Assembly: GCA_001029715.1 (NCBI GenBank)
Contig: CP011212.1
Location: 530,173-594,172 of the forward strand
Reading direction: 5' to 3'
Source: a candidate division TM6 bacterium GW2011_GWF2_28_16
Lineage (GTDB): Bacteria; Patescibacteriota; Microgenomatia; UBA1400; PJMF01
Length of the DNA: 64,000 bases
Part shown: positions 4,945 to 57,262 of the stretch, one piece after another
Layout: each line of letters opens with the position of its first letter
How positions within the stretch are numbered: position 1 is the stretch's first letter
The notes under the pieces: generated by a model
The model's database searches: none
What the model saw: the letters and a program-made list of their open reading frames with translations, nothing else
What the model was told of the DNA's origin: nothing
Program-made: the position numbers and the translations under genes

Positions 4945-5769
4945 TTATTTTTCGGCAATTTTCATTAATCTTTGCAAGTCTTCTTGAGTTTTATCTGGAG
5001 GTCCATTGAGAGTAATGGTTACTTTGGTTTGTTTACGGGAGCGAATCACCTTGAGCGTAGATTTGTTTTTGAAATATTCCTGCAACTTGTTTTCCCAAAC
5101 CGCCACCTGTTGTTCATCTTGATTAAGTGGACGACCGCGACCCTCATCTTTTTTACTAGTAGTCAGCTCATTATTTTTGAAACGTCTAACCAACTCCTCT
5201 GTACGACGCACAGAAGCAGTTTCTTTAAGCACTATCTTGTAGCAAGCAATCATCATTTCTTGTGAAGAAATACTAGCCAAAGCTCGAGCATGACCTTCAC
5301 TAATTTGCCCACTAAGTAAGCCGTCACTAACTGCATCTGGCAGACTCAATAGCTTAAGACTGTTGCTAATATAGGCTGGAGATTTACCAATTCTTTTAGC
5401 TACTTCGCTAGTTTGCAAATTAAATTCTCTTTGCAAACGTTGAAAAGATTGAGCTCGCTCAATTGGATTGAGATCGTAGCGCTGGACATTTTCAACGATA
5501 GCCATCTCTAACATACCCTGAGGACTCGTTTTTTTGATAAAAACCGGCACTTCTTCTAACCCAAGAGTCTTAGCTGCTCGCCAACGTCGCTCTCCTGCAA
5601 TAATCTGATAACCAGCTGGAGTTTCTGCAACAACTAGTGGCTCCAAAACACCATGAATACGAATTGATTCTACCAACTCTTCAATATCTTCTTTCTTAAC
5701 TTTGTCTCGAGGTTGAAACGGATTTGGCTGTAAATAATTGACGGCGAGTTTTTGTACATTTTGTGTCAT
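4945..5769 (-). CDS. parB: Chromosome partitioning protein ParB/Spo0J
   Basis: ParB N-terminal box (LQPNPFQPRD...GVLEPLVVAE...YQIIAGERRWRAAK) and an HTH region. Convergent with ftsI. Confidence 0.85.
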   Translation of the reverse strand: MTQNVQKLAVNYLQPNPFQPRDKVKKEDIEELVESIRIHGVLEPLVVAETPAGYQIIAGERRWRAAKTLGLEEVPVFIKKTSPQGMLEMAIVENVQRYDLNPIERAQSFQRLQREFNLQTSEVAKRIGKSPAYISNSLKLLSLPDAVSDGLLSGQISEGHARALASISSQEMMIACYKIVLKETASVRRTEELVRRFKNNELTTSKKDEGRGRPLNQDEQQVAVWENKLQEYFKNKSTLKVIRSRKQTKVTITLNGPPDKTQEDLQRLMKIAEK

Positions 5770-6097: not shown

Positions 6098-7321
6098 ATG
6101 AAAAAAATAAAATTACAAAAAAAACATTATCAAAATTTACCAAATAAAGCAGGTTTCTTTGGTGAATACGGTGGACAATTTGTGCCACCACAATTAAAAA
6201 AAGCACTGGAAGAAGTGACGGCTGCTTACGAAATAGCAAAAAGAGATCCTGATTTTCAAAAAGAATATCAGACTCTTTTGACAGACTACGTCGGTCGTCC
6301 ATCGCCACTTTTCTTTGCCAAAAATCTAACTGAAAAGTTAGGTGGAGCTAAGATTTATCTAAAGAGAGAAGATCTTAATCACACTGGTGCACACAAAATT
6401 AATCACTGTTTAGGCGAAGCACTTTTGGCTAAAAAAATGGGCAAGAAAAAACTCATTGCTGAAACTGGCGCTGGTCAGCACGGCGTAGCTTTGGCTACTG
6501 CCGCTACGCTCATGGGGTTAGAATGCGAGATTCACATGGGTGAAATTGATGTCGTTAAACAATATCCAAATGTTTTACGCATGCAATTACTTGGTGCCAA
6601 AGTGATTACAGTAAAAAGTGGCGGCAGATGTCTTAAAGACGCGGTCGACAGTGCTTTTGCTGCCTATCTGAATGATTATAAAAACACTTTCTTTGGGATT
6701 GGTTCAATAGTTGGTCCGCATCCATATCCAATGATGGTCAGAGATTTTCAATCAGTGGTAGGAAAGGAAGCTCATAAACAAATTTTGCTTAAAGAAAATA
6801 AACTACCAGATTATTTGGTGGCCTGTGTTGGCGGTGGTTCTAATGCCATGGGTTTATTCCACGCTTTTTTAAATGATAAACAAGTACAAATGATTGGTGT
6901 TGAACCAGCTGGCAAAAGCTTTAAGCCAGGTGATCATGCTGCAACTTTAACATTGGGCAAACCAGGCACTTTGCACGGCATGTTCACTTATTTACTACAA
7001 GATAAAAAAGGAAAACCATCGAGGGTTCATTCCATTGCTTCTGGCCTAGATTATCCTGGAGTTGGACCACAGCACGCTTATTTAAAAGATCAAACCAGAG
7101 CAAAATATGTTACTATTAATGATAAAGAAGCCTTGGAAGCCTTTTTGTTTTTAAGTAAAATCGAAGGCATTATTCCGGCTTTAGAAAGTGCTCATGCCAT
7201 TGCTTATGCCATGAAATTAGCACCGACTTTGGCTAAAAATAAGGTCATCCTTGTCAATCTCTCTGGCCGCGGAGATAAAGACCTCGATTACGTTGGCAAG
7301 TTATTAAAAATTAATGAATAA
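6098..7321 (+). CDS. trpB: Tryptophan synthase beta chain (standalone; no trpA in window)
   Basis: [12 protein letters not shown] and the PLP-lysine motif [19 protein letters not shown] is also present. Confidence 0.9.
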
Positions 7322-7342
7322 TAAAAATAAATAGGAAAAATT

Positions 7343-8311
7343 ATGAAAAAAAACATTTTAACTGGTGATCGTCCCACTGGCCAACTACACATTGGTCATT
7401 ATTGCGGTGCTCTTAAAAATCGTGTTGCTTTGCAAGACGAATACAACACCTACGTGATGATTGCTGATGTCCAAGCTTTGACTGACAATTTTAATGACCC
7501 AGAAAAAGTTAGAAAAAATGTCTTTGAAGTCGCAAAGGATAATCTGGCTGTTGGTATTGATCCTCAAAAAACCACCATTTTTATTCAATCAATGGTTCCA
7601 GAAATTGCGGAGCTGACAATTTTTTTCTCTAATTTGGTTACCATTAATCGACTTAAAAGAAACCCTACTGTTAAAGATGAAATTAAACAAAAACATGCCT
7701 TATTTAAGGATGATGTTACTTTCGGTTTCTTAGGTTATCCAGTCAGCCAAGCAGCAGATATTACTGCTTTTCAAGCTGATCTGGTTCCAGTGGGCGAGGA
7801 TCAATTGCCTATGATTGAGCAAACCAGAGAGATTGTTCGTAAATTTAACAGTATCTATGGAGAAACGCTTAAGGAACCACGAGCTAAAGTCGGAGATGTT
7901 CCAAGAGTCTTGGGTATGGATGGTCGTAAAATGAGTAAAAGTCTAGACAATTCGATCACTTTTACTGATTCGGATGAGGAAATTAGAAATAAAATCAAAG
8001 GAGCCTTAACCAATGAAGTCGGAGCCAAGAATCTACTTAGTCTTCTGGAACAATTCTCAGATGAGCAAAAGATGGTCGAGAAATTTAATCAAGAATTTAA
8101 AGAGGGAACTATTAAGTACTCAGAGCTAAAACCTTTCTTGGCGCAAGCAATTATAGAAAAACTCAAGCCAATTCAAGAAAAAAGAGCTTACTATGACCAA
8201 AATCCAAAGATAGTTGAGGAAATACTTATTGAAGGCACAAAAAAAGCAAGAATGATTGCTAAAGAAACCTTAGCTAAAGTCAAAGAGAAAATGTTTATTA
8301 ATTATTTTTAG
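7343..8311 (+). CDS. trpS: Tryptophanyl-tRNA synthetase
   Basis: Class I HIGH motif (TGQLHIGHY) and KMSKS. Typical TrpRS size (322 aa). Confidence 0.9.
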   Translation: MKKNILTGDRPTGQLHIGHYCGALKNRVALQDEYNTYVMIADVQALTDNFNDPEKVRKNVFEVAKDNLAVGIDPQKTTIFIQSMVPEIAELTIFFSNLVTINRLKRNPTVKDEIKQKHALFKDDVTFGFLGYPVSQAADITAFQADLVPVGEDQLPMIEQTREIVRKFNSIYGETLKEPRAKVGDVPRVLGMDGRKMSKSLDNSITFTDSDEEIRNKIKGALTNEVGAKNLLSLLEQFSDEQKMVEKFNQEFKEGTIKYSELKPFLAQAIIEKLKPIQEKRAYYDQNPKIVEEILIEGTKKARMIAKETLAKVKEKMFINYF

Positions 8312-11240: not shown

Positions 11241-14093
11241 TTATAAATTAAGTTTTGTTTCTTCGCCTTTTTTAATTTTAGTATTGGTCTTTTCTTCGAT
11301 TTCTTTTTGAAAAAACTCTGGCCAAGACGGCAACTCTACTTCAACAAGCTCATTCATATCTAATAAGGCTTCTTTGCGTAAATCCTGAATTTGACGAATC
11401 AGAGCCCGAGCTTCACCTTCAGCTATAAGTTCCGGTGTTAATTCAAAATCATAATCAACCATTAAATCGCCAGTTTGCTCTAGCCATTCTATTTTTTTGA
11501 CATTCAGCTCGAGTTTTAATACTTCCTCTAGTTCAGCTCTGTCAGAAATCTCTCCAAAACCACTCACTTTTAAACTTGCTAAAGGCTGACGAGCTTTAAC
11601 CTGCTTTTCTTTACGTAAAGCATGTGCCGCTTCTACAATTTTGCGAATTGAATCCATCGATCTTTCTAATTTTCGATCAAAGAATTGCTCCTTATATTCA
11701 GGGAATAACTCCAAATGAATTGAGCTCTCTTCATCAAACATACTGTGATGAACTAATTCAGCAAAAAATGGCACTATTGGGGCAACAACTTTAGCTAATT
11801 CATAAATCACAGTCGCAAAAACCTGACTAACTTCTTTATTATCAGTTGCTTTGATTCTTTCTCTGGAAAGACGCAAATACCAAGTTGATAACTCATCAAT
11901 GAAAGGTGCTAACAAGCGACTAGCTCTCATTACATCATAAGAATCTAAATATTGTCTCATTTCTTTGATCAGATTTTCTAAGCGACTCAAAATCCAACGA
12001 TCAAGTAAATTACTTGGCAACTTATCGGCACTGAGATCAAAAAAGCCAGCATCCTGATCAGCAAAACTCTTATAAAAAGCCAAAACATTCCACCAAATCA
12101 CAAAAACTCGGCGACGCAAATTGGAAACATCTGATTGCGAAAAATTAAGTGTTTCGGCTTTGACCGCGGGAGAAGACATTAAATAAAGACGAAGAGCATC
12201 AGCCCCATATTTATCCAAAATTGCTCCTGGCTCTGGATAATTTTTAAGACGCTTGCTCATTTTTTTACCATCTTCAGCCATAATTAAGCCAGTGCACATC
12301 ACATTTTTAAAAGCACCGTTTTCTTTCTCACTACCTAAAGTTAGAGCTGTAGCCAAAACATGCAAAGTATAAAACCAACCGCGAGTTTGATCCTGACCCT
12401 CAGAAATAAAATCAGCGGGGAAAGCATGCTCAAAAGCTTCTTTATTATCAAATGGATAATGTAATTCACCATAAGGCATTGAGCCAGACTCGAACCAACA
12501 ATCTAAAACCTCTGGAATATGACGATAAGTTTTGCCATCTTTTTTAATTTCAATCTTATCAACAATGTGCTTGTGCAAATCGCTAACCTTTTGACCAGAA
12601 AGTTTTTCTAATTCTTCAACCGAACCTACGCATAAAAAGTCACCCTCTTCGCTTTCCCAAATTGGTAAAGGCGTACCCCAATAACGATTACGGGAAATTG
12701 CCCAATCTCTAGCACCTTCAAGCCATTTGCCAAAGCGACCGTGCTTGATATGATCTGGCTGCCAATTAACCTTTTCATTATTGGCCAATAGCTGATCTTT
12801 GAAAGAACTCACTCTAACATACCAACTATCAGTAGCGTAATTAAGTAGAGGAGTGTCACAGCGCCAGCAATGTGGATAACTATGTTCGATTTTTTTCTTG
12901 GCAAAAAGTGTGCCATGAGCCGCTAAATACTTAATAATTTCAATGTCGGTAGCCTGAGGATTATCTTTTGCTTTGACTTCCATGTCTGCAAAATCAGTGA
13001 CTTCCTTAGTAAAACGGCCCTCCATGGTCACATGCTGCAAAAGCTCGATGCCCTCAGCTTTACCGATATTGTAATCATCTTCACCAAAAGCCGGAGCAAT
13101 ATGTACAACTCCAGTGCCTTCTTCTGTACTAACAAAGTCAGCAGCAACTATTCTAAAAGATTTGGCCCAATCAGCAAAATAAGAAAAAGGAGGAGTGTAA
13201 GTTAGACCAACTAATTCACTGCCTTTAAAACTTTGGCCAACTAATTCGAATTTTTTATCAGTCATGACTTCTTCTAGAAGTTCTTTGGCTAAAATAAACA
13301 GCCCTTCATGATCTTCAACTCTGACTAAAACATAATCCAAATCAGCTCCAACTGCCAAAAGAACATTGCCTGGCAACGTCCAAGGAGTAGTAGTCCAAGC
13401 AACCGCATAAATTTTTTCATCAGTTTCGACACCTAGTTTTACAGTAGCATCCTGCAATTCAAATTTAGCAAAAACAGAAATATCCTTGACATCTTTGTAA
13501 CCCTGGGTAACTTCAAAGTTTGAGAGCGGAGTTCCACAACGAGGACAGATGTGCATGGATTTATGACTTTTGTAGATCAAATCCTTTTTCCACAATTCAT
13601 TGAAAACCCACCACACGGTTTCCATGAATTCTTTATCCATAGTTTTATAAGCATGATCCATATCAATCCAACGTCCAATGCGACGAATGGTCTTCTTCCA
13701 TTCTTCTGCATAAGTTAAAACAGTTTGACGACAAGCTTCATTAAATTTATCTACTCCATAACCCTCAATATCTTTTTTACTATCAAGATTGAGTTCTTTT
13801 TCAATAATATTTTCGACAGGTAAACCGTGACAATCCCAACCCCAAACGCGACGAACTCTTTTGCCTAGCATAGTTTGATAACGGGGAATCAGATCCTTAA
13901 TCATTGACTGCATTAAATGACCATAATGAGGTAGACCAGTAGCAAAAGGAGGTCCATCATAAAAAGAGAAAGAATTATTTTCATCTCTTTGGTCAACTGA
14001 TTTTTGAAAGGTTTGATCCTTGTCCCAAAATTCTAGAATCTCTTGCTCGAGCTCTGGGAAATTTGGTACTTGTCTAAAATCTTTTATTTTCAT
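11241..14093 (-). CDS. ileS: Isoleucyl-tRNA synthetase, type 2 (eukaryote/archaea-like)
   Basis: PPFATGLPHYGHL HIGH region typical of IleRS2, and KMSKRLKN. 950 aa. Confidence 0.9.
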   Translation of the reverse strand: MKIKDFRQVPNFPELEQEILEFWDKDQTFQKSVDQRDENNSFSFYDGPPFATGLPHYGHLMQSMIKDLIPRYQTMLGKRVRRVWGWDCHGLPVENIIEKELNLDSKKDIEGYGVDKFNEACRQTVLTYAEEWKKTIRRIGRWIDMDHAYKTMDKEFMETVWWVFNELWKKDLIYKSHKSMHICPRCGTPLSNFEVTQGYKDVKDISVFAKFELQDATVKLGVETDEKIYAVAWTTTPWTLPGNVLLAVGADLDYVLVRVEDHEGLFILAKELLEEVMTDKKFELVGQSFKGSELVGLTYTPPFSYFADWAKSFRIVAADFVSTEEGTGVVHIAPAFGEDDYNIGKAEGIELLQHVTMEGRFTKEVTDFADMEVKAKDNPQATDIEIIKYLAAHGTLFAKKKIEHSYPHCWRCDTPLLNYATDSWYVRVSSFKDQLLANNEKVNWQPDHIKHGRFGKWLEGARDWAISRNRYWGTPLPIWESEEGDFLCVGSVEELEKLSGQKVSDLHKHIVDKIEIKKDGKTYRHIPEVLDCWFESGSMPYGELHYPFDNKEAFEHAFPADFISEGQDQTRGWFYTLHVLATALTLGSEKENGAFKNVMCTGLIMAEDGKKMSKRLKNYPEPGAILDKYGADALRLYLMSSPAVKAETLNFSQSDVSNLRRRVFVIWWNVLAFYKSFADQDAGFFDLSADKLPSNLLDRWILSRLENLIKEMRQYLDSYDVMRASRLLAPFIDELSTWYLRLSRERIKATDNKEVSQVFATVIYELAKVVAPIVPFFAELVHHSMFDEESSIHLELFPEYKEQFFDRKLERSMDSIRKIVEAAHALRKEKQVKARQPLASLKVSGFGEISDRAELEEVLKLELNVKKIEWLEQTGDLMVDYDFELTPELIAEGEARALIRQIQDLRKEALLDMNELVEVELPSWPEFFQKEIEEKTNTKIKKGEETKLNL

Positions 14094-14361
14094 AGTTTCC
14101 TCGTTGCTTAATTCTAGTTTGTTTTAATTAATAAAAAAAGCCTGCCTAAAAACGAAAAGATCGTTTCTAAGCAGGCTTATCTAATTCAAGATAAAGGTAC
14201 CAGCCGCTTTTTAGATTTGCCAATGTGCAAATCTTTACTTAATTTAGAGTGATTACGGACTCAGCCGATCTGATTTACTCACTTTTTTATTTCAATTTCA
14301 AAAAAGCTTTCTGCAGACACCTCGCCGTGGATAGCGGCTAAAAAGGTTTTGAATACTAGGA
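14094..14361 (-). promoter_or_regulatory. Candidate T-box riboswitch leader (Ile specifier AUC) with extended -10 promoter TGcTATAAT
   Basis: On the minus strand, the -10 sits at plus coordinates 14353-14361. The candidate specifier AAAUCAGAUCGG (14255-14266) has AUC followed by A. The antiterminator has a 7-nt bulge UGGUACC (14186-14192) flanked by helices GCGGC/GCC(U)GC and UUAUCU/AGAUAA. The terminator lies downstream. Confidence 0.5.
14123..14167 (-). terminator. T-box leader terminator upstream of ileS
   Basis: Minus-strand hairpin AAGCCUGCUUAGAAACG...CGUUUUUAGGCAGGCUU followed by U7. Its 5' arm overlaps the antiterminator 3' strand. Confidence 0.5.
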
Positions 14362-29073: not shown

Positions 29074-29078
29074 TTCTG

Positions 29079-54007: not shown

Positions 54008-54577
54008 CTAATCATTAACTCTAGAAACATAATCTGCGGTTTCAGTGTCAATCAATAAGGTGTCGCCAGTTTTAATAAAAAGAGGGGCCTGAACAATCAA
54101 TCCGCTTTCCATAGTAACTGGTTTCTTGCCTGCAGTTTGACGATCTCCAGAAATAGCATCTTGAGCATCGGAAACAGTCATTCTTACTTTTGGTGGTAAA
54201 ACTACACCGATAACAGCCTCTTCATAAACAGTTAAATAAACTTTAATGTCAGAAGTTAACATTAGGGCTTTGTCATCTAAAATACTTCTCGGCACTGTCA
54301 TCTGTTCGTAAGAACGAGGATCCATAAAAACAATTTCATTACCATCATGGTATAAAAATTGCATTTCTTTGGTTTCAACATCTAATTCTTCGACATTATC
54401 GTGAGATTTAAAATTAAATTCCAAATTAGAACCATTGCGCATGTCGCGCATTTTAACTCTGGTAAAAGCTGAGCCTTTGCCTGGAGAAACGAACTGAGTC
54501 TTCACTACATAATGAGGAAGGTTTTTATATAAAATATAAATACCTTTTTTGATGTTGCCTGCTTTTATGGTTGACAT
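54008..54577 (-). CDS. efp: Elongation factor P
   Basis: KOW-like domain I with the conserved loop SPGKGSAF (the modifiable Lys) and OB domains II and III. Confidence 0.9.
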   Translation of the reverse strand: MSTIKAGNIKKGIYILYKNLPHYVVKTQFVSPGKGSAFTRVKMRDMRNGSNLEFNFKSHDNVEELDVETKEMQFLYHDGNEIVFMDPRSYEQMTVPRSILDDKALMLTSDIKVYLTVYEEAVIGVVLPPKVRMTVSDAQDAISGDRQTAGKKPVTMESGLIVQAPLFIKTGDTLLIDTETADYVSRVND

Positions 54578-54609
54578 AGATTGCGATATTCTACACCAGA
54601 CAACATTAG

Positions 54610-55674
54610 TTAATCAAGAAATGCTTCGCTGGCTGGGAAAAATAAGGTTTGATCGATATTGCTTACATCTGCAAAAAGCATAATTAGGCGATCTATTCCC
54701 ACTGCCATACCGCTGGATTCTGGCAATCCAAATTCCAGTGCAGTAAGAAAATCTTGGTCGATTTTATGATCTTTTTTGCCTAGTTCTTTGCGCAAAAGCA
54801 TATCTGCTTCAAGACGTTTTTTTTGTTCCTTAGGATCAATTAACTCACCGAAGGCATTGCCTAGTTCCATGCCCGCTAAATAAACTTCAAAACGTTCGGC
54901 AAAACGTGGATCACTAGCTTTTTTTCTAGCTAAAGCCGCCTGAGGAGTAGGATAGTCATAAACAATCACTGGCTTATTAAAAGCAGCTAATTTACTTTCA
55001 ATTTCATTTAAAAACAATTGATTATAGAGTTCTTCCCAAGCTAAATCGGCTGATAATGACTCAAGACCACTAAGATCGTAGCCCAAGCTTTGCGCTTTTT
55101 GACGCAAAAACTCAAGATTTAGAAGCTGATCAGCATTTAAATGCAAATACTTTTCAAATAACTCTGCTACGGAAAATTTCAAATATGGTGAAGTTAAATC
55201 AAAAGTGCACCCCTGATAAACAACTTTTTTGGCATTAAGCGATAGAGCTTGGCAAATAAAAGCCATCATCGCCTCGAAATCATTCATCACATCAAGATAA
55301 TTAGCATTAGCACGATAAAATTCCAAAATAGTAAATTCAGGATTGTGCTTTCCACCCAAGCTCTCTTGATTACGAAAAGTTTTACAAATTTGAAAAATAT
55401 TACCCAAACCAGCAGCTAAAAGTTTCTTCATTGAATATTCAGGACTAGTCAATAAATAAGCTTGTTTTTTTTGACCATCTGGCAACTCTAAACTAGTTTC
55501 AAAAAGGTTGAGATAGGGCTCGGCCCCTGGGCAACTAGCTAAAAGAGGAGTTTCTACCTCATGAAAAGCTTGTCCTTTGAAAAACAAACGAACAGCATCA
55601 ATGACTTTTTCACGCATCAAAAAACGCTCAGCTAGTGAGGGAGTTTCTTTAATTTTTTGCCAGTTCTTCTTCAT
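54610..55674 (-). CDS. epmA: EF-P lysine34 lysyltransferase EpmA (PoxA/GenX; class II LysRS paralog lacking an anticodon-binding domain)
   Basis: Class II aaRS catalytic core (FHEVETP, motif 2/3 arginines) without an N-terminal OB domain. Lies immediately upstream of efp. Confidence 0.7.
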   Translation of the reverse strand: MKKNWQKIKETPSLAERFLMREKVIDAVRLFFKGQAFHEVETPLLASCPGAEPYLNLFETSLELPDGQKKQAYLLTSPEYSMKKLLAAGLGNIFQICKTFRNQESLGGKHNPEFTILEFYRANANYLDVMNDFEAMMAFICQALSLNAKKVVYQGCTFDLTSPYLKFSVAELFEKYLHLNADQLLNLEFLRQKAQSLGYDLSGLESLSADLAWEELYNQLFLNEIESKLAAFNKPVIVYDYPTPQAALARKKASDPRFAERFEVYLAGMELGNAFGELIDPKEQKKRLEADMLLRKELGKKDHKIDQDFLTALEFGLPESSGMAVGIDRLIMLFADVSNIDQTLFFPASEAFLD

Positions 55675-56652: not shown

Positions 56653-56740
56653 CTCTTGTCTATTAAAGCAGAAAAAGAGGGTGGAGGGCAAGAAGAGGAG
56701 AGATGTTGAGCAAAAATTGGGGTGAAAAAATTACAAAAAA

Positions 56741-56768
56741 ACCACTCTTAAAAGTGGCTTTTTTAGAT
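56741..56768. terminator. Bidirectional terminator (CCACUCUUAAAAGUGG flanked by A7 and U6)
   Basis: On the minus strand it lies about 90 nt downstream of the CCA end of the tmRNA-like gene. Confidence 0.5.
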
Positions 56769-56858
56769 TTGGGTAATTCCCCGACTTCATTTGCGAAACT
56801 AGCTATCATTCTACATATTTTTTTTAAAATTTCAAGTTTAGTTTTAAACTTTTATTAT

Positions 56859-57075
56859 TGGTGGACCGGAGGGGAATCAAACCCCCAAACCTCATTTCGC
56901 AAACGAAGTCACACACCAGTGCTCCGGCCCTACCTTTATTATCTAAGGAGTAGATTGCAAGAAGTGTGATGAAAAGAGGATTGGGATTTGGAGCGGGTGT
57001 CGCCCTACAGGCACTAGGCGGGACTTTCAGTCTCGCCGTCGCCAGAATCAATCCTCACTTTGTTCTACCACATTC
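56859..57075 (-). ncRNA. ssrA: Candidate tmRNA (ssrA)-like RNA; the 3'-terminal 72 nt (56859-56930) form a tRNA-like module with G3:U70, a T-arm GGGGG-UUUGAUU-CCCCU, and an encoded CCA
   Basis: This is the only RNA gene in the window that encodes CCA. The acceptor stem GGGCCGG/CCGGUCC carries the alanine G3:U70 determinant. There is no canonical D arm or anticodon arm. The upstream part contains UGAUUCUGG...CGACGG, which resembles the tmRNA 5' consensus. The total length (about 215 nt) is unusually short, and the 5' boundary is uncertain. Confidence 0.4.
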
Positions 57076-57087
57076 AAATAAAAAAAA

Positions 57088-57115
57088 CGACTCTTCCGAG
57101 TCGTCTTTTTTATTT
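57088..57115. terminator. Bidirectional terminator (ACGACUC-uucc-GAGUCGU flanked by A8 and U6)
   Basis: Lies immediately 3' of tRNA-Gly(TCC) on the minus strand. Confidence 0.55.
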
Positions 57116-57116
57116 G

Positions 57117-57187
57117 AGCGGGTGACCAGAATCGGACTGGCTTCTTCTCCTTGGAAGGGAGACATACTACCGGTGTACTACACCCGC
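57117..57187 (-). tRNA. tRNA-Gly (anticodon TCC) with an unusual T-loop, TCCGATT
   Basis: Acceptor GCGGGTG/CACCCGC, anticodon loop CUUCCAA, 4-nt variable loop, discriminator U. The C55 deviation is the same as in tRNA-Gly(CCC). Confidence 0.65.
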
Positions 57188-57262
57188 GTTTCTTAATATA
57201 GCAGAATTTGGCTATTTTCTGTAGTTTACAATACTTGAGTAAGAAGCAAAATAGGTAAATGT

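Follow-up and report, generated by a model that had tools for sequence, protein, structure and literature searches.

The locus downstream of tRNA-Gly(UCC)

The stretch of DNA analysed here, referred to as the window, comprises 64 kilobases (kb; 64,000 nucleotides, nt) of contig CP011212.1 in assembly GCA_001029715.1. On its minus strand, the genes for a 331-amino-acid protein and transfer RNA (tRNA)-Gly(UCC) are followed by a small element, and then by the genes for a Na/Ca exchanger, an EpmA-like class II synthetase paralog and elongation factor P (EF-P). A previous interpretation from the letters alone, the sequence-only reading, had taken 217 nt at this position for a transfer-messenger RNA (tmRNA) gene with an unusually short body, that is, a strongly reduced or rearranged ssrA, with a free alanine-accepting tRNA-like minihelix as the minor alternative. 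The supposed mini-tmRNA is instead two unrelated things side by side, a scar derived from the 3' end of tRNA-Gly and a separate tRNA-Ala-like gene of 72 nt, hereafter the module. The proteins encoded beside the module recur unchanged on numerous contigs from groundwater metagenomes and in two metagenome-assembled genomes (MAGs; GCA_000991725.1 and GCA_018817305.1), and their homologs are labelled Candidatus Woesebacteria or Patescibacteria (candidate phyla radiation, CPR). The features of the locus are collected in Table 1.

Table 1. Features of the locus in the window and cargo found at the same site in related lineages
Feature	Source	Position	Strand	Basis or remark
Canonical tRNA-Gly(UCC)	window	57116..57187	minus	kept in all relatives; downstream DNA is a variable insertion hotspot
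Terminator A, directly after tRNA-Gly(UCC)	window	57088..57115 (hairpin about 57087-57115)	minus	sequence, terminator scan
Displaced duplicate of tRNA-Gly(UCC) 3' end	window	56990..57049	minus	scar comparison across relatives; shuffles
Block of ~315 nt in source species, missing in L036	window	56766..57081		BLAST coordinates and L036 sequence
Conserved upstream region (TTGCAATCTACTCCTTAGATAATAAAGGTA)	window	56931..56960	minus	28/34 identical to L038 copy
tRNA-like module	window	56859..56930	minus	69 nt (56862-56930) plus in-register CCA (56859-56861); sequence, ARAGORN, Rfam, fold, L038 homolog
AT-rich spacer with second promoter-like site and small conserved hairpin/micro-ORF (open reading frame) region (GGGGAAUUACCCAAA)	window	56766..56858	minus	promoter scan; L038 comparison
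Terminator B (AAAAAAGCCACTTTTAAGAGTGGTTTTTTT), cassette 3' end	window	56731..56765 (hairpin about 56734-56765)	minus	terminator scan; L036 and L038 comparison
Cargo at tRNA-Gly site: DUF7670 proteins	L019, L021			
Cargo at tRNA-Gly site: zinc ABC transporter	L022			
Cargo at tRNA-Gly site: PAP2	L024			
Cargo at tRNA-Gly site: insertion sequence (IS) element with rve transposase	L037	1894-3104		
Cargo at tRNA-Gly site: LPG_synthase_TM protein gene and VanW-like gene	L046 (L046-L051, P0004 lineage)			

In its minus-strand context the module reads ...GGUA-GGGCCGGAGCACUGGUGUGUGACUUCGUUUGCGAAAUGAGGUUUGGGGGUUUGAUUCCCCUCCGGUCCACCA-AUAAU.... Its 3' end (...GGGGGUUUGAUUCCCCUCCGGUCCACCA) finds its complement in a GGGCCGG placed exactly 72 nt before the terminal A; together they form a perfect acceptor stem of 7 base pairs (bp; GGGCCGG/CCGGUCC) with a G3:U70 pair and discriminator A73, and the T arm is GGGGG-UUUGAUU-CCCCU. 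The acceptor stem, T arm, G3:U70, A73 and CCA that the sequence-only reading had placed at this spacing are thereby confirmed. The same reading held that no D or anticodon arm could be drawn, and here it has to be corrected: ARAGORN draws exactly the 72 nt of the module as a cloverleaf, labelled 'tRNA-Arg(gcg)', with a 4-bp D-like hairpin (loop UGGU), an 'anticodon' helix of 5-8 bp, which in its 5-bp form closes a canonical-looking loop of 7 nt (UU-GCG-AA), and a variable region of 1 nt. Both arms are supported by a second copy of the module in a related species (L038). The 72-mer has a folding energy of -34 kcal/mol (z = -3.6 relative to shuffled sequences) and folds into a compact four-way junction of acceptor stem, 4-bp hairpin, long central hairpin and T arm.

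Measured against an ordinary tRNA, the module is only partly regular. Both copies carry a 7-nt loop on a 5-bp stem (UU-GCG-AA in the window, CU-AAG-AA in L038) with Y32, U33 and R37, and GG is present in the D loop. The conserved tRNA core is altered, with A8 in place of U8 and a central helix that takes in position 26 and the variable region, of which 1 nt is left, and the T loop is UUUGAUU (U56) in the window or UCCGAUU (C55) in L038. The alanine identity elements G3:U70 and A73 are the same in both copies, and an alanine anticodon (NGC) is absent from both (GCG in the window, AAG in L038). Of the two copies, ARAGORN recognises only that of the window, and at gathering thresholds Rfam gave the module no match to any family.

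An encoded CCA in register is found in the module only. All six ordinary tRNA genes of the window lack one, as had been stated before, and each continues with 'CA', never CCA, straight after the discriminator (3' flanks at 29078, 29169, 30528, 53856, 57116 and 59988: CAG, CAG, CAA, CAT, CAA and CAT, respectively). This uniform context may relate to processing by RNase Z or the CCA-adding enzyme in the lineage.

The stretch upstream of the module has another origin. The motif GGATTGATTCTGG (GATTCTGG at 57049-57042), which had been proposed as a tmRNA 5' consensus at about 57040-57055, derives from the neighbouring tRNA-Gly: with ACCCGCTC (56998-56991) it makes up a displaced copy of the gene's 3' end (...CCGATTCTGGTCACCCGCTC), split by one hairpin unit of ~43 nt (57041-56999). 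Both motifs in order within 130 nt were obtained in none of 20000 shuffles. The scar is also found downstream of tRNA-Gly in L045 and L038, where it is uninterrupted, as well as in L021 and L004. Most loci of the source species are 100% identical over 56700-57200; the sister-strain loci L003 and L004 carry an insertion of ~1 kb (cupin and NUDIX genes) at window ~57013-57017, between scar and module, together with a ~55-nt hairpin unit repeated in tandem three to four times, and in L004 two scar copies bracket the insertion. With 1 kb of genes between its two parts in these strains, the 217-nt span does not hold as one unit; what stands of the original observation is the 72-nt module, and the claims about its arms and about the larger span fall away. 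The two terminators said to bracket the locus were recovered as hairpins, the upstream one belonging to tRNA-Gly rather than bracketing a tmRNA.

Insertion at tRNA genes usually leaves repeats of tRNA 3' ends as its footprint. Such tRNA and ssrA 3'-end fragments are left behind by genomic islands and are known to confuse tmRNA and tRNA calling (PMC4131195). The upstream stretch is of this kind, a displaced tRNA-Gly 3' copy beside the intact gene, whereas the module differs from such fragments in having both acceptor strands and a complete fold. The possibility that the module itself is a duplicate of the neighbouring tRNA-Gly was rejected, as the two are unrelated (43/72 identities, the lowest among the comparisons); the tRNA-Gly-derived part is the upstream scar only.

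Two further observations concern the scar. The hairpin unit (~43-55 nt; GGCGACGGC..GAGACTGAAAGTCCCGCCTAG..; window 56999-57041, minus strand; L004 6440-6640) sits inside the tRNA-Gly duplicate, has an 80%-identical copy downstream of tRNA-Gly in L019/L020, and may be a small repeat element or a recombination site. The cupin and NUDIX mini-island of L003/L004 (~6616-7590) is flanked by direct repeats of ~31 bp, CTAGTGCCyGyAGGGCGAyACCCGCTCCAAA, which take in the 3' acceptor strand of tRNA-Gly; these repeats suggest serial site-specific insertions at the tRNA-Gly hotspot, and an integrase was not found nearby.

The cassette and its two copies

The module does not stand alone in being shared with L038. 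The two loci have a unit of ~230 nt in common (window 56960-56731), the cassette, of which L038 (neighbour protein 77% identical) holds a 74%-identical copy at another site and on the opposite strand. There, it forms a discrete insertion of ~287 nt at the extreme 3' end of epmA, in an epmA-efp spacer that elsewhere measures ~32 nt. The closest relative (L036; neighbour protein 94% identical, DNA flanks ~96% identical) shows the converse, with tRNA-Gly followed directly by the terminator at window 56765-56734 and ~315 nt (57081-56766) missing. The cassette is accordingly a discrete insertable unit, present or absent as a whole at different sites, namely the tRNA-Gly(UCC) hotspot in this Candidatus Woesebacteria species and the epmA-efp spacer in the related species. 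At the junctions only short A/T-rich direct repeats were seen by eye (AAAT..AAAAAAG; TTATTT), and each region searched holds one copy.

At the syntenic site, no module was present in nine further lineages whose neighbour protein is 60-84% identical (L019, L021, L022, L024, L025, L037, L038, L045 and L046); these keep tRNA-Gly and hold other cargo there (Table 1). A conserved syntenic RNA is therefore refuted by ten related lineages without the module at this site. The IS element and the VanW-like and LPG_synthase_TM cargo mark the locus as highly plastic across Woesebacteria.

Upstream of the module, the conserved stretch shared with L038 ends in GATAATAAAGGTA and contains GATAATAAAG, a -10-like box that ends 7 nt before G1, is conserved in L038 and is predicted to act as the promoter. 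The same motif, ATAATAA(A)G, precedes the window's tRNA genes for Asp, Lys and Leu, and in tRNA-Gly(UCC) a TATATT ends 7 nt before G1. In the spacer downstream of the module, the promoter scan identified a second promoter-like site, TTGAAA-16-TAGAAT (56835-56808), with TTGAAA...TAAAAT as its counterpart in L038. The sequence GGGGAATAGCCCAAA in the same spacer is conserved in L038, and a small GGGGAAU..CCCAAA hairpin precedes the terminator.

This last part of the cassette may be a second small RNA or a peptide gene. In both genomes (window 56835-56731, minus strand; L038 ~13975-13860, minus strand), the promoter-like TTGAAA-16/17-TAGAAT/TAAAAT is followed by either a hairpin and terminator or a micro-ORF, depending on how the sequence is read; the micro-ORF would encode MKSGNYPNLKK... 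in the window and MRLGNSPNLKN... in L038, with two synonymous differences. As regards the insertion site in L038, the stop codon of the epmA-like gene overlaps the -35 box of efp in most genomes (CTTGATTAA; window 54577-54610), and in L038 the inserted cassette (13826-14112) takes the place of the final few codons of epmA and separates this gene from efp by a bidirectional terminator. Both module copies (n = 2) lie within 2.3 kb of epmA/efp.

The two modules differ at 17 of 69 positions (25%), and the differences are unevenly spread, with none in positions 1-9, 14 in positions 10-32 and three in positions 33-69. None of the 24 acceptor and T-stem positions differs (P = 1.9e-4 under uniform spread), and extending the set to 32 positions by the 3' strand of the central helix brings in no difference (P = 2.7e-6). 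The D-like hairpin shows two double compensations (C10:G19 to U:A and A11:U18 to G:C) and one one-sided change (G9:U20 to G:C), while the central helix has four one-sided, wobble-compatible changes and one broken pair (U25:A39 to A.A). Pairing is thus kept in seven of the eight changed stem pairs, two of them via double substitution, and 47 of 48 pair cells are standard compared to 41-63% in a control with the 3' partners slid; with n = 2 independent copies the covariation statistics are weak, a shuffle control reaching the observed value in 134 of 500 trials. In the loop, the triplet changes from GCG to AAG, with U33, A37 and A38 unchanged. The L038 copy ends ...UCC-A-CA-CCA, that is, with the genome-typical 'CA' after the discriminator and the CCA shifted by 2 nt, and a 2-nt deletion would seem to have brought the CCA of the window copy into register. 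The fold thus appears to be maintained between the copies, most of all in the half formed by acceptor and T arm, which includes G3:U70 and A73; the anticodon and the encoded CCA are not kept.

Relationship to tRNA-Ala and to tmRNA

A search of IMG/VR with an 18-mer from the module (GATTCCCCTCCGGTCCAC) returned five matches, all of them ordinary tRNA-Ala genes (UGC, GGC, CGC) in phage tRNA arrays. Their T arm and 3' strand, GGGG(G)UU(U/C)GAUUCCCCUCCGGUCCA, are nearly identical to those of the module, and G1:C72, G2:C71, G3:U70 and A73 of the acceptor end are shared with bacterial and phage tRNA-Ala genes. A covariance model built from the two copies gave ~94 bits for the copies themselves; the best of the remaining matches were tRNA-Ala genes (43, 33 and 32 bits), and no other tRNA exceeded 28 bits. 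The comparison is partly circular, the tRNA-Ala set having been fetched by a module-derived motif, but it does show the T arm and 3' acceptor strand of the module to be a common tRNA-Ala signature, with nothing specific to tmRNA. The module differs from tRNA-Ala in its GCG or AAG anticodon, 4-nt D loop, 8-bp central helix, 1-nt variable region, A8 instead of U8, non-consensus T loop and sub-threshold Rfam tRNA score, and in not being conserved in close relatives.

Further copies or relatives of the cassette were sought more widely. blastn of the cassette against 50,697 phage records and 72,556 plasmids found nothing, and a phage or plasmid origin was rejected on this ground and on the nature of the IMG/VR matches. 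Pattern scans of genome and metagenome collections, in which the source-species locus itself is not contained, revealed no further copy of the cassette; all that they returned were tmRNA ends and tRNA-like units of alanine type that are unrelated to it. The literature searched, the coverage of which is incomplete, contained no account of an element of this kind in Patescibacteria.

Several tRNA-like units in other genomes deserve a record of their own. Three Acidobacteriota MAGs (L028 2553-2627, minus; L029 3345-3419, plus; L030 1842-1914, plus) share a conserved unit of 73-75 nt with a GGGCCGG/CCGGUCC stem (G3:U70), A73, encoded CCA, a 4-bp anticodon stem and a loop lacking U33, which scores 35 bits with the Rfam tRNA model and receives no ARAGORN call; since the search pattern itself required this acceptor stem, homology to the module is unproven. 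Rhizosphere metagenome tRNA arrays (L031 ~372-447, L032 ~4947-5022, L035 ~173-248) contain tRNA-Ala(UGC)-like units with encoded CCA, G3:U70, a G5.G68 mismatch and C33, which ARAGORN misses. On a tRNA-rich contig (L033 ~1690-1760, minus), ...UUCGGAC-ACGGGG-UUUGAUU-CCCCGU-CCGGUCC-ACCA is followed 26 nt on by GGGCCGGUCCUGAU..., an order expected of a circularly permuted (two-piece) tmRNA, again with no ARAGORN call.

The module is not a tmRNA, as every family-specific test (models, tag, architecture and conservation) fails, and what it keeps is only what tmRNA has in common with tRNA-Ala. ARAGORN found no tmRNA anywhere in the window, and a tmRNA model search of the whole window gave nothing at E<=0.05. 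In a 901-nt search, the tmRNA model RF00023 did align end to end with the 72-mer (E = 7e-4), though on the module alone, with the whole interior of the model deleted and at 15.1 bits against a gathering score of 47, which is less than the 24.9 bits reached with the tRNA model. The permuted tmRNA model RF04321 reached 12-14 bits (gathering 47), and a permuted two-piece tmRNA was rejected, no 5' acceptor strand being present downstream of the CCA. Three-frame translation of 57075-56931 revealed no tag reading frame, in agreement with the sequence-only reading, and no SmpB-like ORF was detected in the window with one SmpB sequence as the probe. tmRNA has no D stem, and its P2 helix opens into the tag ORF and pseudoknots. 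The module shares with the tRNA-like domain of tmRNA (RF00023) the alanine identity elements, the T arm, the CCA end (in register in the window copy only) and independence of an anticodon, and differs from it in the D hairpin, the closed 8-bp anticodon-like arm with its 7-nt loop, the missing tag and its dispensability among relatives. Even the mRNA-less mitochondrial tmRNAs of jakobids remain a single conserved, SmpB-dependent ssrA gene, and the module is missing from the locus in L036 and nine further lineages.

Interpretation of the module

On balance, the module is probably an accessory tRNA-like gene derived from tRNA-Ala and carried on the self-contained ~230-nt cassette. Its own -10 box would drive transcription from G1 or from a position no more than a few nt away, and the transcript would be matured like the CCA-less tRNAs of the genome by 3' trimming and, where needed, CCA addition. 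Alanyl-tRNA synthetase (AlaRS) ignores the anticodon, and the module is probably alanylatable and would be charged through G3:U70 and A73. G3:U70 is the major determinant for AlaRS (PMC6451123). Decoding by the module is unlikely in view of the drifting anticodon, the length of the central helix (8 bp, leaving a variable region of 1 nt) and the changes to the core (A8, and U56 or C55). Any action of the module would most likely lie in its acceptor/T-arm half, which could donate Ala-RNA or serve as a decoy to enzymes that bind tRNA; failing that, the module would be a structurally constrained passenger of mobile DNA. This agrees in part with the minor alternative of the sequence-only reading, in that a free tRNA-like RNA with alanine identity is compatible with all findings, while a compact cloverleaf takes the place of the minihelix, the CCA register is not conserved, and the headline tmRNA is lost.

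Some of the results count against a maintained tRNA-Ala derivative. The tRNA model score of the window module stays below threshold (RF00005 in sensitive mode, 24.9 bits, under the gathering score of 29), and the L038 copy matches tRNA-Sec best within the Rfam clan (24.1 bits; gathering score 47). The T loop has left the consensus differently in each copy, as would be expected under relaxed constraint, and the small number of copies and the partial circularity of the tRNA-Ala comparison, both described above, weigh in the same direction.

The main rival is a decaying, structurally still intact tRNA-Ala pseudogene on mobile DNA, brought in by a phage or island, whose anticodon and core were lost and which now persists as neutral cargo with no function. 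It would account for the restriction of the module to two lineages among the roughly one dozen relatives examined, in inserted DNA each time, for the failure to reach the threshold of any Rfam family, and for the loss of conservation in anticodon, T loop and in-register CCA. We nonetheless consider it somewhat unlikely, in view of the 24 of 24 acceptor and T-stem positions unchanged against a background divergence of 25%, the pairing retained in all but one of the changed stem pairs, and the conserved -10-like box; a recent inter-lineage transfer could explain part of the similarity but not the compensatory pattern. The invariant 3' half would be explained if the module were an att-type recombination site, a tRNA-Ala look-alike of which a site-specific recombinase targets the T-arm/3'-acceptor region, and the locus is indeed an insertion hotspot with tRNA 3'-end direct repeats, tRNA and ssrA 3' ends being commonly used by islands (PMC4131195). 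A DNA site, however, needs neither the 5' acceptor strand (positions 1-9), which is also invariant and perfectly complementary, nor the doubly compensated D hairpin; moreover, no integrase gene lies beside the cassette in either genome, and the scar repeats of the hotspot consist of tRNA-Gly and not module sequence, which makes this explanation quite improbable.

A decoding tRNA with alanine identity and a GCG or AAG anticodon, which would insert alanine at CGY or CUY codons as a mistranslating or recoding tRNA, is very improbable. The 7-nt loop with Y32, U33, A37 and A38 on a 5-bp stem in both copies would suit such a role, as would the indifference of AlaRS to the anticodon, with G3:U70 as the main determinant (PMC6451123), but the anticodons of the two copies have no consistent codon target, the core is compromised (8-bp central helix, 1-nt variable region, A8, and a T loop without C56 in the window or U55 in L038), and proteome-wide Arg-to-Ala or Leu-to-Ala substitution would be costly in a streamlined genome. 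That the module is the end of a strongly reduced or rearranged ssrA, with the 145 nt upstream as its body, is extremely improbable. Its G3:U70, A73 and CCA do agree with a tmRNA 3' end, and by eye its 5' part (A8, CUGG, GAC) loosely resembles the D-loop analog of tmRNA. Against this stand the model and ARAGORN results, the missing tag ORF, and the D hairpin and closed anticodon-like arm, which tmRNA tRNA-like domains lack. The presumed 5' end is furthermore the tRNA-Gly duplicate, separated from the module by 1 kb in L003/L004, and the L038 copy has nothing of it upstream; and the module is absent from the nearest relative, unlike an essential ssrA.

Returning to the accessory tRNA-Ala derivative, a more specific form of it can be proposed, which we regard as clearly unlikely as a joint claim: a mobile, non-decoding alanine-acceptor RNA, a 'tmRNA tRNA-like domain without the tmRNA' that arose from tRNA-Ala, was horizontally acquired by some Woesebacteria and is used outside decoding. 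Its Ala-charged acceptor/T-arm half would either supply the amino acid for tRNA-dependent transfer to cell wall or lipids, or serve as a decoy, drawing off factors that bind or target tRNAs. A parallel in concept exists in the non-proteinogenic tRNA-Gly isoacceptors of Staphylococcus, which are used by Fem transferases for cell-wall cross-bridges. These too are chargeable paralogs with altered D/T-loop and core that are kept from decoding, differing from the module in having a glycine anticodon and a normal cloverleaf and in being core genes.

tRNA-derived tRNA-like genes on mobile DNA are already known as a kind, and the module is a variant of them. The value of the present results is mainly corrective, in that a plausible mini-tmRNA resolves into a tRNA-Gly integration scar and a separate tRNA-like gene, and they illustrate that insertion hotspots beside tRNA genes can mimic composite RNAs. 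An expressed and alanylated mobile tRNA-Ala derivative is put forward as a hypothesis, drawn from two copies. Expression and alanylation, if they do occur, would make the module a rare example among bacteria of a tRNA-Ala derivative that moves horizontally and does not depend on an anticodon, here in a CPR organism with a minimal genome. It would then bear on non-ribosomal uses of aminoacyl-tRNAs and on the origin of tRNA-like RNAs.

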